Virus record (IMG/VR): IMGVR_UViG_2563366903_000004
Origin: a virus
Taxonomy: Duplodnaviria; Heunggongvirae; Uroviricota; Caudoviricetes
DNA length: 17,827 nt
Strand: one strand, 5' to 3'
A model generated the notes under the pieces. That model saw nothing but the letters and a program-made list of their open reading frames with translations, was not told the DNA's origin and ran no database searches. This document shows positions 1,957 to 15,029 of the stretch, piece after piece; the first letter of the stretch is position 1; the number at the start of each line of letters is the position of its first letter. The position numbers and the translations under genes were made by a program.

Positions 1957-3939
1957 TTATGATGATGCCCGGCTTTCGTTAACTTTGACTGTGACCGTAT
2001 CAAGCAGTACCGGATACGTCGCTTTTGCCCCCGTGATATCTGTCAGCGTCAGCGTATCTGCTGTAAAGCCATCATTTGTCCACATCACCAGGTCAAACGC
2101 AGACTGCTCTGTATCATCAATCACCGGCACCACTTTTTCGCTGTTATTTCCCGCAAAGCGGAAAACAACTGTATGCCAGTTATGGTCAAATGCCCCAAAT
2201 GTGCCCAGTTGCGCATTCGACTCCCCCTTGTGGTACATCAGATTCAGATTTGATGCATCCGTCTGAAGGAAGAAGGACGCCAGCATGCTGTTTGCTGTCG
2301 CGCCTGACGCCCACTGCGACACCGGCCAGTACAGACCAAAGACAAACTGACCGTTAACCAGTTCGACACCCTCCGGGATCTTAAACCGCACGGCAATTTC
2401 ACCTCCCTTACTGAGAAGATTTTTTGCCTCCTCCACCGCAACAGTACGGAACATCTTCCAGGAGGTCAGTTTACCCGGCTGTTTTTCCAGTCGCAGCGCC
2501 TTCCTGCCACTGTCATCCGTCACAGTGCCTTTACCACCGGACGCATTCCACTGCTGCTCTGTCCATACACCACTGCCACTGTTCGCATCATATCCGGCCA
2601 CCATTCTTGTTACGGCTTCAGTATGACCGCCTGCAGAAGTACCTGCACCCTGCTGTTGCGTCGGACCCGCAGAGCCAGACTGTGCATCCCCCGTGGAGGC
2701 TGGCGTGGTCGCCAGCGGTGCAGACTGCCCGCTCAGGAACGGCAGCAAACGCCCGGCTCGCACCAGTATCTCTCCTGCCAGCCGATCTGAAACAATGCCT
2801 CTTCGCGCCCAGGAGCTGAAGTGCGTTTTACGATCGGCTGTCGTCCAGTTACCATTACTGCGTGACGCGGCACCATAGTATCCCGCCGTGATAATGTCCG
2901 GATCTTCTGACGGCTCGTTTGTCGGCACATTCGCACCATGCTCATCCGTCATCAACGGCACAAAGTGAATATTCTGCGCCGCCTTGCCTTTATAGCCTCC
3001 GTAAACCGCCTCATACTGCACTGCATACTTCGCCTTCCAGTCGTACGTGGTGTCACCGCAAATCCACGGGACGCCGGACGTTGTCCCGCCAATACACTGG
3101 TCTGCAATATCTGCCAGGTCTGCACGGTATTTATTTACCATGGCAAGAAAAAGTGCATTGTGCTCTGCATGTCTCCCCGAACTGACATCTTTTTCCCCCT
3201 GCATCCAGATCACCGACAACAGCACGTTTTTCGGATTTTTCTTCAGGGCCGCACGGGTTCTGCTGACCAGGTCATGATACAGCGGTTTATCCGCCCCCCA
3301 CAGGGACGAGCCTGCGGTCGCTCCCGACGCTTCGTTAAACGCCCCCTCGGCCCCCGCAGTAAATCCCGAATCGCCACGGCCACATGGAACAAGAAGGATA
3401 CCCGCATTCGCAGGCATAAACGGCAGCAGCTTTTTGGCAACATGCAGAGCATGCCCCACACAACCGTACTGCCCTTTATTGAGGTCTGCTTTCGGGTGAT
3501 TCAGATTACTCACGTCCTGCACATCATGCAGACAGTGGTCTGCCGGAATGATGTCGTTATATTTACAGGCGGCACCACCCGGCGTCACCGTACTGCGACG
3601 CGCCAGCTGTTTAATACGCGGGTCCGGACGGTCATATGTCTCCGGCAGCGGCAGCCCTTCACCAAAAGACATTGAGTTTGACTGCCCCGCCAGAACAACA
3701 ACAAAGTAATACTCCGGTTCGCTGGTGGTGCTGATAACTGTGCCTTCTCCATCCGACGGCTTCACCACCACAGGTGTGGTGACATCACCTTCCGCCGCAA
3801 TGGCCTGCATCAGGGTATAAGGCGTGATGGCGACAGGGCTGCCAAATGGCTGCCACCCCTCCTTCAGTTTTTGTGTCAGTCGCTCCGCAAGGTCTGACGG
3901 CGATGCCGCCCTGACAACATCATAGTGTTTAAATGCCAT
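1957..3939 (-). CDS. nanS-p: Prophage sialate O-acetylesterase, NanS-p-like (SGNH hydrolase family)
   Basis: 665-aa ORF 1957..3954; GQSNSMSFGEG matches the SGNH/GDSL active-site block; recalled similarity to the large esterase gene found downstream of stx in EHEC lambdoid prophages; the second Met (ATG at 3939, preceded by GGTGGAAAG) is the more likely start. Confidence 0.75.
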   Translation of the reverse strand: MAFKHYDVVRAASPSDLAERLTQKLKEGWQPFGSPVAITPYTLMQAIAAEGDVTTPVVVKPSDGEGTVISTTSEPEYYFVVVLAGQSNSMSFGEGLPLPETYDRPDPRIKQLARRSTVTPGGAACKYNDIIPADHCLHDVQDVSNLNHPKADLNKGQYGCVGHALHVAKKLLPFMPANAGILLVPCGRGDSGFTAGAEGAFNEASGATAGSSLWGADKPLYHDLVSRTRAALKKNPKNVLLSVIWMQGEKDVSSGRHAEHNALFLAMVNKYRADLADIADQCIGGTTSGVPWICGDTTYDWKAKYAVQYEAVYGGYKGKAAQNIHFVPLMTDEHGANVPTNEPSEDPDIITAGYYGAASRSNGNWTTADRKTHFSSWARRGIVSDRLAGEILVRAGRLLPFLSGQSAPLATTPASTGDAQSGSAGPTQQQGAGTSAGGHTEAVTRMVAGYDANSGSGVWTEQQWNASGGKGTVTDDSGRKALRLEKQPGKLTSWKMFRTVAVEEAKNLLSKGGEIAVRFKIPEGVELVNGQFVFGLYWPVSQWASGATANSMLASFFLQTDASNLNLMYHKGESNAQLGTFGAFDHNWHTVVFRFAGNNSEKVVPVIDDTEQSAFDLVMWTNDGFTADTLTLTDITGAKATYPVLLDTVTVKVNESRASS

Positions 3940-4132
3940 GGTTCTTTCCACCATCTGAAAAATAATTCTTTAAAATACCTGACATGTAATACAGAAAAAA
4001 CACAAAACCATACCTTAAATAAAAACCTCATCATCAAGCAGATATGCATGGGTAAACTACAAGACGAGATATAAACCACCCTGCATTTAAATAAACAATA
4101 AACAACATCAGAAAAATAATTCTGCTCTATGG

Positions 4133-4159
4133 TTTACATTCAAAAATATCATTTATACT
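4133..4159 (+). promoter_or_regulatory. Putative sigma70 promoter for the AT-rich moron gene
   Basis: TTTACA (4133-4138), 15-bp spacer, TATACT (4154-4159), ~40 nt upstream of the 4200 ATG; spacer length is suboptimal. Confidence 0.3.
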
Positions 4160-4199
4160 TTTCAGAACATCACCAGCAAGACATAAACAAGGAAACTAA

Positions 4200-4535
4200 A
4201 TGAAGTGGATTGTGATTGATACAGTTATCCAGCCATCATGCGGAATATCTTTTTCAGTCATATGGAGTAAAATAAAATTAATAATCTGGTATCAATCGGA
4301 TGCTTTCTTACCTCCTGAAAGTATATTTACACTGACTCACACAGGTATCATGCTCAATAACAAAGTGCTACCTGTAACCATTTACAACGTAGTACCATTC
4401 AATAAAAAATTCTGGAATTTAATCAAAAACAGCCAGGAATGCCCTACAAATACAGATAACGTATTGAATGAATGCTTTAATAACCGTTGCACTCTGCAAA
4501 TATGTCCTTATGGACTAAAACAACAAAGTCCATAA
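4200..4535 (+). CDS. Hypothetical protein (111 aa) in an AT-rich opposite-strand moron
   Basis: ATG at 4200 preceded by AAGGAAA; AT-rich composition unlike flanking phage DNA; Cys-containing, no obvious signal peptide; stop codon sits inside a perfect 12-bp inverted repeat (4505..4538). Confidence 0.4.
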
Positions 4536-4552
4536 GGAGTTTACTCACATCT

Positions 4553-4590
4553 GACAAAATCAATATAAACAGCCCCTCCGGAGAGGGGCT
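4553..4590 (-). terminator. Intrinsic terminator-like hairpin downstream of the GC-rich structured region
   Basis: Perfect 8-bp stem AGCCCCTC-cgga-GAGGGGCT (4571-4590), followed on the minus strand by a U-rich tail GUUUAUAUUGAUUUUG. Confidence 0.5.
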
Positions 4591-4830
4591 GGAGAGTGGC
4601 GCTATGTGCCATTGCATGGTGCCGGGTGCCTCCCGGTGAGTTCAGTATCAGCACCTGAACCCGCACAGAAAGGATAAGGGTCGGTGACAAAACACCAGTT
4701 GCTGATTGCCCCTCCGCACAGGGGGATTCACCATGCCAGTTTCTTTTAACAAACTCCCCGCAAACCAGACAACAGTCAACCGCCTGAATTGTGAGGCATT
4801 TAAAAATTTCAACGGGTAACTGATACCCTG

Positions 4831-4983
4831 CTAATCGCCTGATGCTTTCTTTTTCAGCAACGGGAAAGCAACAACCACCACACCCGCCACCAGCACACCG
4901 TCAGCCAGCACTGACATTATCCGGCTGCTGAAGTCCACCATCACCACCAGAAACAGCAGGAGCGCAACCACAGCCAGACGCAT
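4831..4983 (-). CDS. Small hydrophobic peptide (50 aa), possible membrane protein
   Basis: Hand-translated minus ORF MRLAVVALLLFLVVMVDFSSRIMSVLADGVLVAGVVVVAFPLLKKKASGD; starts 9 nt downstream of the TerB-like stop; below the ORF-track size cutoff; weak RBS. Confidence 0.25.
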   Translation of the reverse strand: MRLAVVALLLFLVVMVDFSSRIMSVLADGVLVAGVVVVAFPLLKKKASGD

Positions 4984-4991
4984 TTTTACCG

Positions 4992-5423
4992 TCACAGATG
5001 ATTCTCCAGACGAAGGCCCAGGACACCGGCAATCTCTTCCAGCACCTTGCGCTCTTCCGGCTCTATTTCGCCGTCTGCTTCGGCAATGGCCACCGCCACA
5101 TCCAGCACGTCTTCCGCTTCACGCGTATCGTGTTTCACATCCTCGATCTCACGTAACGCCGCTCGACGACCAATTTTAAAGTTCGTATCCAGCTGACCGA
5201 TAATGGTTGCGCTAATCGCATTAATTTCTGACGTAAACGCGGACAACGCAGGCTGGTTACGCAAGACCTGCTCGATCTTCGCTTTCTCTGAAGCCTCACA
5301 TTCACCATCTGCATAGGCCACCAGATAGGCAGCATTAATAACCGCCTGTGCCAGATCACGTTTCTCAAACTTTTTAATTTCCACTGCCGCTCGGCGGGCT
5401 TTTTTACCAAAAATACCAAACAT
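4992..5423 (-). CDS. TerB-like (tellurite-resistance family) protein
   Basis: Internal ATG at 5423 of ORF 4992..5495, with AAGGAA 7 nt upstream; MFGIFGKKARRAAVEIKKFEKRDLAQAVINAAYLVAYADGECEASEKAKIEQV... has the acidic/helical pattern of TerB-like proteins (recalled, not searched). Confidence 0.5.
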   Translation of the reverse strand: MFGIFGKKARRAAVEIKKFEKRDLAQAVINAAYLVAYADGECEASEKAKIEQVLRNQPALSAFTSEINAISATIIGQLDTNFKIGRRAALREIEDVKHDTREAEDVLDVAVAIAEADGEIEPEERKVLEEIAGVLGLRLENHL

Positions 5424-5554
5424 CGTGACGTTCCTTTGGGTGGGTGAGCCAACGCCCGGGAGCGATCTGCCCACAGAGAAAGTCACACTGACCACTCCGT
5501 AAGCTCACCCCCGAAAGGCTCTGTGGTTGATATGCGCCGGGCGTGGCGCAGATA

Positions 5555-5580
5555 CAAAAAAAGCCCGCCGAAGCGAGCCT
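5555..5580 (-). terminator. tR'-like intrinsic terminator downstream of Q
   Basis: Minus strand GGCTCGC-ttcg-GCGGGCT hairpin followed by seven T; ~150 nt downstream of the Q stop; a second GC palindrome (TGCGCC-N6-GGCGCA, 5532-5549) lies just beyond it. Confidence 0.6.
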
Positions 5581-5591
5581 GATAATAAATC

Positions 5592-5670
5592 TGGAGCGGG
5601 TAGCGGGAATCGAACCACGATAAGAAGGTTAACAGCCTTCCGTAATGACCTTTATACGACTGACCCAAAT
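5592..5670 (-). pseudogene. Degenerate tRNA-like element (tRNA relic) between Q and tR'
   Basis: Minus strand has a canonical T-arm/3' end (GGTTCGATTCCCGCTACCCGCTCCA) and a perfect anticodon stem-loop GAAGG-CTGTTAA-CCTTC (anticodon GTT) with a D-loop-like AAAGGTCA, but acceptor and T stems do not pair, so it is not an intact tRNA. Confidence 0.3.
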
Positions 5671-5729: not shown

Positions 5730-6248
5730 CTAAATGGCTAATTGCATGTCAAGGCTTTTAACAGCAACATGCTTAACTTTCTCAACACGTTTACGCATTT
5801 TGAAAGCATTTTGCATTGGTTGGTACAAAACAAATAATGACGCTTTCAGGATATCGTCAATTTCGTTTCTACAGGTTGCCAGTGAAGGTTTTCTCCATCC
5901 CTCGCCACCGCGTCCACACATCTTGCGTGGCTTTGCAGTCGCGTGATAGTAGGATGCAATTGCTCTCTTAGATGAACCATGAGCGTAGTAGCTGAGGAGG
6001 ATGCCAAAGGCTTTCTTGTCAATGTACATGACGGAATCGACGACCTGAGAAATCAACATTCCATCATCATCATTACACATTGGTCTTGTCATAACTCTTC
6101 CCGGCTCTACGCTCTCCATGAACTTCGCTATTACGCTGCTCATGCGCTTTTCCAGACGACCTGAATAAACCCATGCGCCCCACAGTTCAAGCCAGCCATT
6201 CAGCCAATCGTGCTGTTCTTTGGTGAGGTTTAGTTCTCTTATGCCCAT
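5730..6248 (-). CDS. Q: Late-gene antitermination protein Q
   Basis: 172-aa ORF containing WGAW...C.DDD...LL.YY motifs recalled from lambdoid Q antiterminators; directly downstream of ninG and upstream of a tR'-like terminator. Confidence 0.75.
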   Translation of the reverse strand: MGIRELNLTKEQHDWLNGWLELWGAWVYSGRLEKRMSSVIAKFMESVEPGRVMTRPMCNDDDGMLISQVVDSVMYIDKKAFGILLSYYAHGSSKRAIASYYHATAKPRKMCGRGGEGWRKPSLATCRNEIDDILKASLFVLYQPMQNAFKMRKRVEKVKHVAVKSLDMQLAI

Positions 6249-12007: not shown

Positions 12008-12898
12008 TCAGGCTGCCAGATCATCGTTTCCGATGGAAGCATAATAAGCTTTTTCTGCTTCTGCCGGAGGAGTATGGCCCAGCCTTTCCAGCAATCGTCG
12101 ATTGTTATACCAGTCCACCCACGTGAGTGTGGCCAGTTCCACTTCTGCACGGTTTTTCCAGCTCTTACGGTGTATTACCTCCGCTTTGTAAAGACCATTG
12201 ATGCTCTCCGCCATCGCGTTGTCATACGAATCGCCTGTACTTCCTGTTGATGCCAGTAATCCGGCTTCCTTAAGCCGCTGTGTGTAGGCCAGCGATACAT
12301 ACTGAGAACCTTTATCACTGTGATGGACCGTGCCGGACGGTCGACGGGCCCATAACGCCTGCTCCAGTGCATCCAGCACGAATGTCGTCTCCATGGACGA
12401 TGAGACCCGCCACCCCACAATGTATCCGGCAAACACATCAATGATGAACGCCACATAGACGAAGCCCTGCCATGTGCTGACGTAAGTAAAATCAGCCACC
12501 CACAGCTGGTCAGGTCGTTCTGCCACGAACTGACGGTTTACGCGGTCGCCTGCGGCAACGGCTTTCCGGCTGATGGTCGTACGGACCTTTTTACCCCGGA
12601 GAACACCGGCAAGTCCCATAACCGCCATGAGACGTGCCACAGTGCATCTGGCCACTCTGATACCTTCCCGTAACAACTGACGCCAGACTTTACGCACACC
12701 GTATACCTTGTGATTTTCATCGTATACGCGCTGTATCTCTTTCTTCAGCCAGTCATCGCGCTGCGCACGGGCACTGCGTTTATCCGGATGATATCGCTGT
12801 TGCTGACAGTGGTAATACGTTGACGGGGCAATATGCAGTTCGCTGCATAGCGGTCCGACCCCGTACTGCTCACGCAGCTTATCCAGCAGTGGCATCAT
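12008..12898 (-). CDS. IS3-family transposase OrfB (DDE catalytic domain)
   Basis: 296-aa ORF; recalled as the IS629 OrfB sequence; normally expressed as an OrfAB fusion by -1 frameshift. Confidence 0.9.
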
Positions 12899-13221
12899 TT
12901 TTTCCAGAGGCGGTCGAACTCCGCCTTCGCAAAATAAGCGGAAGCCTGGCGAAGGATATCGTTACTGCGGCGCAGTTCACGATTTTCACGCTCCAGCTCT
13001 TTCAGACGCTGACGTTCAGCGGTGGTGAGCCCTCCATCACCGCCCCCGGTATCCCGCTCATGCTGGCGAACCCAGACACGCAGAGTCTCCGGCGTACAGC
13101 CAATCTTTGGAGCAATGGAACAAATTGTCGCCCATTGTGAGTCATATTCGCCCTGACTTTCCAGAACCATACGGACTGCCCGTTGACGGACTTCAGGGGA
13201 AAAACGAGTATTTTTAGTCAT
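12895..13221 (-). CDS. IS3-family transposase OrfA (HTH domain)
   Basis: 108-aa [60 protein letters not shown]...; ends in an A-rich run (TGG AAA AAA TGA) overlapping the OrfB start, consistent with a programmed -1 frameshift site. Confidence 0.9.
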
Positions 13222-14321: not shown

Positions 14322-15029
14322 ATGGTTCAGAATGAAAAAGTGCGCAAAGAATTCGCCCAGCGGCTAGCGCAAGCCTGTAAAGAAGCTGGTCTTGATGAAC
14401 ATGGTAGGGGAATGGCTATAGCCCGTGCCCTTTCTCTTTCGTCCAAAGGCGTTAGCAAATGGTTTAATGCTGAGTCTTTACCGCGTCAGGAAAAAATGAA
14501 TGCGCTTGCGAAATTTCTAAACGTTGATGTTGTTTGGCTTCAGCACGGCACTTCGTTAAATGGAGCGAATGATGAAGATACTCTTTCATTTGTTGGCAAA
14601 TTAAAAAAAGGGTTAGTGCGCGTGGTTGGTGAGGCAATTCTTGGTGTTGATGGTGCCATCGAGATGACCGAAGAGCGCGATGGGTGGCTCAAAATTTATA
14701 GCGATGATCCAGATGCCTTTGGTCTTCGTGTGAAAGGAGACAGCATGTGGCCCAGAATAAAATCAGGAGAATATGTACTCATTGAGCCTAACACCAAAGT
14801 ATTTCCGGGGGATGAGGTGTTTGTCAGAACTGTTGAAGGACACAACATGATCAAAGTTCTTGGCTATGACAGAGACGGAGAATACCAATTTACAAGCATC
14901 AACCAGGACCACAGGCCAATAACGTTGCCTTATCATCAAGTAGCAAAGGTGGAGTATGTGGCTGGTATTCTGAAGCAATCTCGCCATCTGGATGACATCG
15001 AGGCAAGGGAGTGGCTGAAAAGTTCGTGA
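14322..15029 (+). CDS. cI: CI prophage repressor (HTH N-domain plus S24 LexA-like autopeptidase C-domain)
   Basis: 235-aa ORF; C-domain has the GDSM serine-nucleophile motif (RVKGDSMWPRI) and a downstream Lys (MIKVLG); no SD before the ATG and a -10-like TAGTAT ends 7 nt upstream, suggesting a leaderless PRM-type transcript as in lambda. Confidence 0.85.
   Translation: MVQNEKVRKEFAQRLAQACKEAGLDEHGRGMAIARALSLSSKGVSKWFNAESLPRQEKMNALAKFLNVDVVWLQHGTSLNGANDEDTLSFVGKLKKGLVRVVGEAILGVDGAIEMTEERDGWLKIYSDDPDAFGLRVKGDSMWPRIKSGEYVLIEPNTKVFPGDEVFVRTVEGHNMIKVLGYDRDGEYQFTSINQDHRPITLPYHQVAKVEYVAGILKQSRHLDDIEAREWLKSS

Follow-up and report, generated by a model that had tools for sequence, protein, structure and literature searches.

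An iraL cassette between the STnc100 terminator and nanS-p of a lambdoid prophage

Gene order and composition around the cassette

The window, by which we mean the whole stretch of DNA that was analysed (17,827 nucleotides of IMG/VR virus record IMGVR_UViG_2563366903_000004, Caudoviricetes), covers a lambdoid prophage whose phage-forward direction is the minus strand. Near its right-hand side, a cI-like repressor gene (14322-15029, plus strand) stands divergent from a Cro-like gene (14276->14016, minus strand). These are followed on the minus strand by an IS3-family insertion (12008-13221) with an HTH_Tnp_1 ORF, an rve ORF and an ALIL frameshift pseudoknot (12824-12940; Rfam RF01497, 120 bits), a Dam methylase gene (9388->8834), the C4 antisense RNA with its a1/b1 targets and isrK (8631-8431, by Rfam), two antirepressor-type genes (8377->7694 and 7625->6897), NinG (6897->6292) and the antiterminator Q (5730-6248; Pfam Phage_antitermQ, 1e-25). 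The prophage may be defective, since the IS3-family insertion interrupts the early region. The C4/isrK RNAs upstream of the two antirepressor-type genes amount to a P1/P7-like immunity-I module in a lambdoid prophage.

At the 3' end of Q, the promoter scan detected a pR'-like promoter (TTGACA-18-CATAAT, 5752-5723, minus strand). On the same strand there follow a degenerate tRNA remnant (5666-5597; Rfam tRNA, 32.6 bits), which corresponds by homology to the argO end of the tRNA cluster in Stx phages, a terminator-like hairpin (5580-5561, terminator scan), which is homologous to the terminator upstream of stxA in phage 933W, a 167-aa TerB-domain ORF (4992-5495; Pfam TerB, 1e-15), and a full-length STnc100-family prophage sRNA (4561-4765; Rfam RF02076, 137.6 bits against a gathering score of 47), whose intrinsic terminator hairpin, followed by a T-rich tail, was located by the terminator scan at 4591-4570. 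ARAGORN reported zero tRNAs in the window. The first-pass annotation had named, between Q and nanS-p, only the AT-rich segment described below in place of stx-sized ORFs, and to this have to be added the TerB-domain ORF, the STnc100 sRNA and the degenerate tRNA. The TerB-domain ORF also shows a weak DjlA-like C-terminal match, and may, we presume, be the 'Fels-1 prophage chaperone' gene. A gene of that name is listed as a common STnc100 neighbour in a 2026 preprint.

On the far side of the AT-rich segment lies a nanS-p-like esterase gene (1957-3954, minus strand) with DUF1737, SASA and DUF6645 domains according to Pfam. To judge from the alignment with L0105 of 933W, its true start is probably the second ATG at 3941-3939, as in L0105, and not the one at 3954; with that start, the cassette would thereby supply the ribosome-binding region of nanS-p. 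The minus-strand ORFs to the left of nanS-p were considered as lysis genes and ruled out: they encode DUF1378 (1817->1623), DUF826 (1771->1307) and DUF1327 (945->481), and the holin lies beyond the window.

The AT-rich segment itself, which had been placed at 3955-4560 with a length of about 600 bp, is indeed real. Its G+C content is 0.320, compared with 0.483 for the window, 0.55 on the nanS-p side and 0.50 on the Q side. Its ends were set by alignment with CFT073, phage 640R1, phi296 and 933W, and the cassette defined by homology in this way turned out to be slightly wider, with 626 bp at 3942-4567 (G+C 0.319). The left junction is the nanS-p start codon, where Stx-phage homology stops, and the right junction is the STnc100 terminator hairpin, where that homology restarts; in these alignments both junctions are sharp. 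The cassette is missing from 933W and phi296, although both flanks are common to them. The only sizeable ORF within 3955-4560 is a plus-strand frame for 111 aa (4200-4535, with an ATG start and a TAA stop at 4533-4535), which is assigned to iraL in the following section. It runs antisense to the late operon, in which Q, NinG, the TerB-like ORF and nanS-p are all on the minus strand, and its GC3 is 0.33 against 0.47-0.57 in the neighbouring genes. Thus composition and strand are both unlike those of the surrounding late operon, as had been claimed, and the proposal of horizontally acquired, opposite-strand cargo is supported, in that the segment is an AT-rich mobile gene in the moron region of the late operon in a lambdoid prophage.

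Assignment of the 111-residue protein to IraL

The protein, which had not been recognised in the first-pass annotation, is identical at 110 of 111 residues (K70 versus T70) to IraL of uropathogenic E. coli CFT073 (c1429, locus C_RS06710; WP_000871291), the RssB anti-adaptor described by Hryckowian et al. (mBio 2014, PMC4045071), and the two coding sequences agree at 334 of 336 nucleotides. This near-identity holds for the whole 626-bp cassette (98.4%) and for the promoter fragment from -100 to +33 (130 of 133 positions, 97.7%), a fragment which, when inserted with the iraL gene, complemented the CFT073 deletion (PMC4045071). In that study the limits for IraL were an identity of at least 95% over 100% of the CFT073 coding region and of at least 96% over the promoter or upstream region; the window sequence lies above both, in its coding region as well as in its promoter with the mapped start. 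On these sequence grounds, we identify the 111-aa ORF as iraL, which is paralogous to K-12 iraM and has been known since 2014, and the window copy is essentially the same allele as CFT073 iraL, with the same promoter.

The likeness between the two copies goes further. They share the length of the protein, its QQSP C-terminal extension, the promoter with its mapped start and a 12-bp inverted repeat, and the neighbours are alike, with STnc100 on one side and the DUF1737/nanS-p start on the other. In CFT073 the order is Q, tRNAs, STnc100, iraL (on the opposite strand), a DUF1737 remnant and the holin. Apart from residue 70, the differences lie in the surroundings, since the window prophage has a full-length nanS-p, with the TerB-domain ORF and the tRNA remnant upstream, whereas CFT073 has three intact tRNAs, an IS200 after Q and a truncated nanS-p.

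Homology search and structure prediction, both of which the first-pass annotation had suggested as checks, have been run and agree on the IraM/IraL family and fold. NCBIfam NF007393 ('anti-adapter protein IraM'; PRK09919) matched residues 1-110 of the 111 with 162.3 bits against a cutoff of 121, and phmmer matched the IraM chain of PDB entry 8twd with an E value of 9e-32. The AlphaFold2 model of residues 1-79 (pLDDT 70-83) consists of a beta-barrel plus a helix, and its best Foldseek match is 8twd_A (TM 0.86, rmsd 1.5 Å over residues 1-79); the predicted structure has the antiparallel beta-barrel, the beta-hairpin and the C-terminal helix that make up the IraM fold in residues 1-78.

IraM of K-12 (YcgW/ElbA) belongs to the same NF007393 family, with the same beta-barrel-plus-helix fold and the same four C-terminal Cys residues, and its sequence aligns to the window protein without gaps at 62% amino acid identity. 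Moreover, PGAP routinely annotates the gene under the family name IraM, as NCBIfam does, and a single GGTTTA PhoP-like half-site overlaps the -35 region of iraL. The 62% identity, the database name and the half-site would suit an ortholog of K-12 IraM, a protein that would bind the two domains of RssB and be induced by Mg2+ starvation via PhoPQ. Such an orthology is nevertheless very unlikely, because the identity is 99% to IraL and only 62% to IraM, and the K-12 iraM coding sequence is only 71% identical at the nucleotide level. BLASTN found no similarity to the K-12 iraM locus beyond the coding region, so the promoters of the two genes are unrelated; in IraM proper one would expect near-identity with the K-12 gene and a common regulatory region, and neither is seen. 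The K-12 gene adjoins the e14 element, responds to Mg2+ starvation, has unrelated flanks, and encodes 107 aa without the QQSP extension. The 3' ends also differ, as iraM has its own terminator composed of a GC hairpin plus T, and the IraL paper reports zero overlap of the iraL and iraM sequence groups (PMC4045071). A PhoP box at the iraL promoter was considered separately and set aside, as there is one half-site only.

The second structural match of the model is E. coli PmrD (4hn7, TM 0.73), a likeness also noted in the IraM structure paper (PMC10844676), and the precomputed Pfam labels of protein databases give PF11183 (PmrD) for all family members. One could hence conceive of a PmrD-like connector that protects another response regulator, for example PmrA, instead of RssB. 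We regard this as scarcely credible, since the identity to PmrD is only 15% and a direct Pfam scan of the protein gave no match even at E ≤ 10, PmrD PF11183 included, and since IraL has been shown to bind RssB. The clusters in contact with RssB are also largely conserved. In IraM, 15 residues contact RssB, in clusters I-III and at Pro66 (PMC10844676), and 11 of these are identical in the window protein, the substitutions being T13S, L75I, H63N and I64V. All five positions of cluster I, the cluster facing the receiver domain of RssB, are conserved, and the four substitutions fall in clusters II and III. In two-hybrid assays IraM interacts with the two RssB domains, IraL with the N-terminal domain alone, and the substitutions in the contact clusters may underlie this reported N-terminal-domain-only binding.

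Outside the modelled core, the protein carries a Cys-rich tail. The first count of four Cys residues in the protein was one too low, for there are five, at positions 14, 81, 92, 97 and 102. In an alignment of 14 IraM/IraL family sequences, C81, C92, C97 and C102 are invariant and C14 is variable, the former making up the motif CP-x9/10-C-x4-C-x4-CP (residues 81-102, window 4440-4505). It is possible that these four invariant residues provide the anti-adaptor with a switch that senses metal or redox state. The idea of a zinc knuckle is without structural support, because AlphaFold2, when run with the 14-sequence alignment, leaves the Cys-rich tail unfolded at a pLDDT below 50; the structural paper likewise treats the C-terminal tail as poorly conserved and flexible (PMC10844676).

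Expression signals and proposed function

The signals read from the plus strand around the ORF stand as first annotated: a -35-like hexamer TTTACA (4133-4138) separated by a spacer of 15 nt from a -10 hexamer TATACT (4154-4159), and a ribosome-binding site AAGGAAA (4189-4195) located 4 nt before the ATG. [quoted passage not shown] The RACE sequence aligns to 4167-4198 at 30 of 32 positions, with two mismatches, and from 4167, which is 7 nt past TATACT, the window reads ACATCACCAGCAAGACATAAACAAGGAAACTA; by homology, the transcription start of the window copy would be at 4167. The promoter went unlisted in our consensus promoter scan because only spacers of 16-18 nt were accepted there, compared with 15 nt here, and the promoter call relies on the published RACE data and not on the scanner. 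Phage 640R1 carries a C->T change at 4137, within the -35-like hexamer.

At the other end of the gene, the perfect 12-bp inverted repeat over the stop codon was confirmed by the repeat search at 4505-4538 (plus strand), with arms TCCTTATGGACT (4505-4516) and AGTCCATAAGGA (4527-4538) and a loop of 10 nt. Across the entire window, just one other perfect repeat reaches 11 bp within 40 nt, and the RNA from 4490 to 4610 folds far better than shuffled controls (z = -6.7). In the iraL mRNA the repeat may fold into a hairpin at the 3' end, with a putative role. This hairpin is stable, with a poor U-tract that does not contain a U-run. The repeat was considered as a conserved terminator, but is perfect only in near-identical copies; we do not claim it as a terminator because it is degraded in a 76%-identical variant, with three mismatches of which none is compensated, and absent from K-12 iraM, where the terminator is canonical. 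The GC hairpin downstream of iraL has its T-run on the opposite strand, and the terminator scan detected no plus-strand terminator near iraL. Since the terminator hairpin of STnc100 coincides with the right cassette junction, any read-through from iraL would be antisense to this sRNA.

A G+C content of 32% is typical of xenogeneically silenced DNA and the promoter spacer is suboptimal, and from these two features one might suspect a silent or decaying ORF in H-NS-silenced DNA, without current function. This is extremely improbable in view of a dN/dS of 0.17 against K-12 iraM, and of the transcription and phenotypic activity of the gene in other hosts, namely for the copies of CFT073 and Shigella sonnei (PMC4045071). 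The first-pass annotation had allowed for a frame disrupted in close relatives; an intact CDS annotation was found in all 40 of the 40 rows sampled across the ranking of matches.

Like the moron that Juhala and colleagues reportedly had in mind in 2000, the cassette adds a gene of deviant composition to a conserved run of phage genes, and close relatives lack it. Homology to the mapped CFT073 promoter further indicates a promoter of its own, which would allow expression from the repressed prophage. Judged by this homology, iraL is a real, self-transcribed prophage moron.

The stress sigma factor RpoS is passed to the ClpXP protease by the adaptor RssB; IraL binds to the N-terminal receiver domain of this adaptor and prevents the transfer, so that RpoS rises. 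[quoted passage not shown] A temperature upshift and the loss of Fur both elicit a response of the iraL mRNA in CFT073. Given its near-identity, the window IraL is expected to bind RssB and to stabilise RpoS in the same manner as in CFT073. In the mechanism that we propose, iraL would be a lysogenic-conversion gene that the repressed prophage expresses, and would raise the basal RpoS level of the lysogen and, with it, its general resistance to stress, while Q-dependent late transcription, convergent through iraL, would oppose its expression during lytic growth. Taken as a whole, an iraL cassette on a lambdoid prophage that encodes an RssB anti-adaptor and would act as a conversion gene raising RpoS in the lysogen is the explanation to which we give a probability of roughly 0.93, by homology to the CFT073 system.

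Position, spread and relatives of the cassette

The first-pass annotation had placed the segment where Shiga-toxin phages carry stxAB, and the alignment with 933W does not agree with this. The 933W terminator just upstream of stxA, together with the argO end, aligns to window 5545-5617 (82.7%), and the 933W STnc100, which lies 75 nt after stxB, corresponds to window 4765-4561. Because these two flanks enclose it, the TerB-domain ORF (5495->4992) occupies the slot equivalent to stxAB. By alignment, iraL sits one slot past this position, between the STnc100 terminator and the nanS-p ATG. Both stxAB and iraL are cargo between pR'/Q and nanS-p in related phages. However, the toxin genes lie between the tRNA/terminator downstream of pR' and STnc100, are read with the late operon and depend on Q, whereas iraL is found past STnc100, on the other strand.

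The two slots can be occupied side by side, as is clear from a Stx2-type phage with an IraL variant (locus L006, positions 3206-5105; GCA_039832115.1, two copies in that genome). There the order is stxA, stxB, STnc100, the IraL variant (P0004, 76% identical, on the opposite strand) and nanS-p, and the stxA product is 94% identical to StxA2 of 933W. Because both co-occur in this phage, the iraL and stxAB slots are distinct. By analogy with the characterized proteins, this phage would join Shiga toxin to a variant of an RpoS-stabilising anti-adaptor.

In 933W, the slot from the STnc100 terminator to nanS-p is filled by the antisense RNA AsxR (RF02703, 88 bits). AsxR and AgvB have the same slot and orientation as iraL: they are flanked by the moron CDS and nanS-p, run antisense to the late operon and converge with an STnc100/EcOnc27-type sRNA, and they are likewise prophage cargo aimed at a host regulator. 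They differ from it in being Hfq-binding RNAs of 51-60 nt that sponge host sRNAs, whereas iraL is a 626-bp protein-coding cassette whose target is a proteolytic adaptor. AsxR and AgvB have primary transcription starts of their own, which have been mapped (Tree et al., Mol Cell 2014, PMC4104026). Within the cassette, neither a remnant of AsxR/AgvB nor any similarity to them came up in a permissive Rfam search of 3850-4850. From this parallel we would tentatively suggest, while regarding it as possible and still doubtful, that the space between the STnc100 terminator and nanS-p is a swap slot for antisense, lysogen-expressed anti-regulators, either AsxR/AgvB or members of the IraM/IraL family, the latter in one or more phages of the Stx2 type as well; beside this the invariant Cys residues are a side question. 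If the suggestion is true, phages would spread alternative rewirings of the host, of sRNA networks or of RpoS proteolysis, via one recombination site.

Of 5426 complete E. coli genomes, 1440 contain the segment with promoter plus gene, in at most three copies each. Among deposited phage records, four carry the cassette, and about 250 others, mostly Stx phages, share the flanks only. Both junctions are kept in 1427 of the 1440 carrier genomes. A phage slot as fixed as this raises the question of whether iraL is chiefly a gene for the benefit of the phage, which would tune prophage induction or late-gene and nanS-p expression, and not the stress resistance of the host, via RssB/RpoS or via transcription convergent with STnc100 and the late operon. 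In keeping with this, iraL is convergent with STnc100 and ends only 25 nt from the end of the sRNA match, the cassette gives the sequence directly upstream of the nanS-p start codon, and relatives are found in the same region of the Stx2-type phage and of an E. albertii prophage. In the CFT073 prophage, however, which has decayed (with the IS200 after Q and the truncated nanS-p), iraL has been kept and is functional for RpoS, which fits a host benefit. We hold a role chiefly for the phage to be unlikely, and prefer the reading of iraL as a conversion gene that would raise RpoS in the lysogen.

The function of iraL was established in 2014, and the present finding adds no new biology to it. What it adds is a name for the gene, a slot (the anti-sRNA slot and not that of stxAB), and the spread of the family on phages, one of them of the Stx2 type. 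Anti-adaptors of the iraL type travel as a fixed cassette on lambdoid prophages and occur in about a quarter of the complete E. coli genomes, which has a modest bearing on RpoS differences between E. coli lineages and on the spread of this trait by prophages. In our search of the literature for iraL or iraM as a phage moron, we found nothing beyond the 'potB genomic island' of the 2014 paper.

More distant relatives occur in other settings. One from E. albertii (67% identity) is again flanked by Q and nanS-p and read from the opposite strand, but is placed on the Q side of STnc100, and another (71%) lies within an IS21/PerC island that is not phage-like. Phage vB_EcoS-640R1 (locus L003) has two STnc100-family copies in tandem upstream of iraL, at 4657-4845 and 5121-5314.
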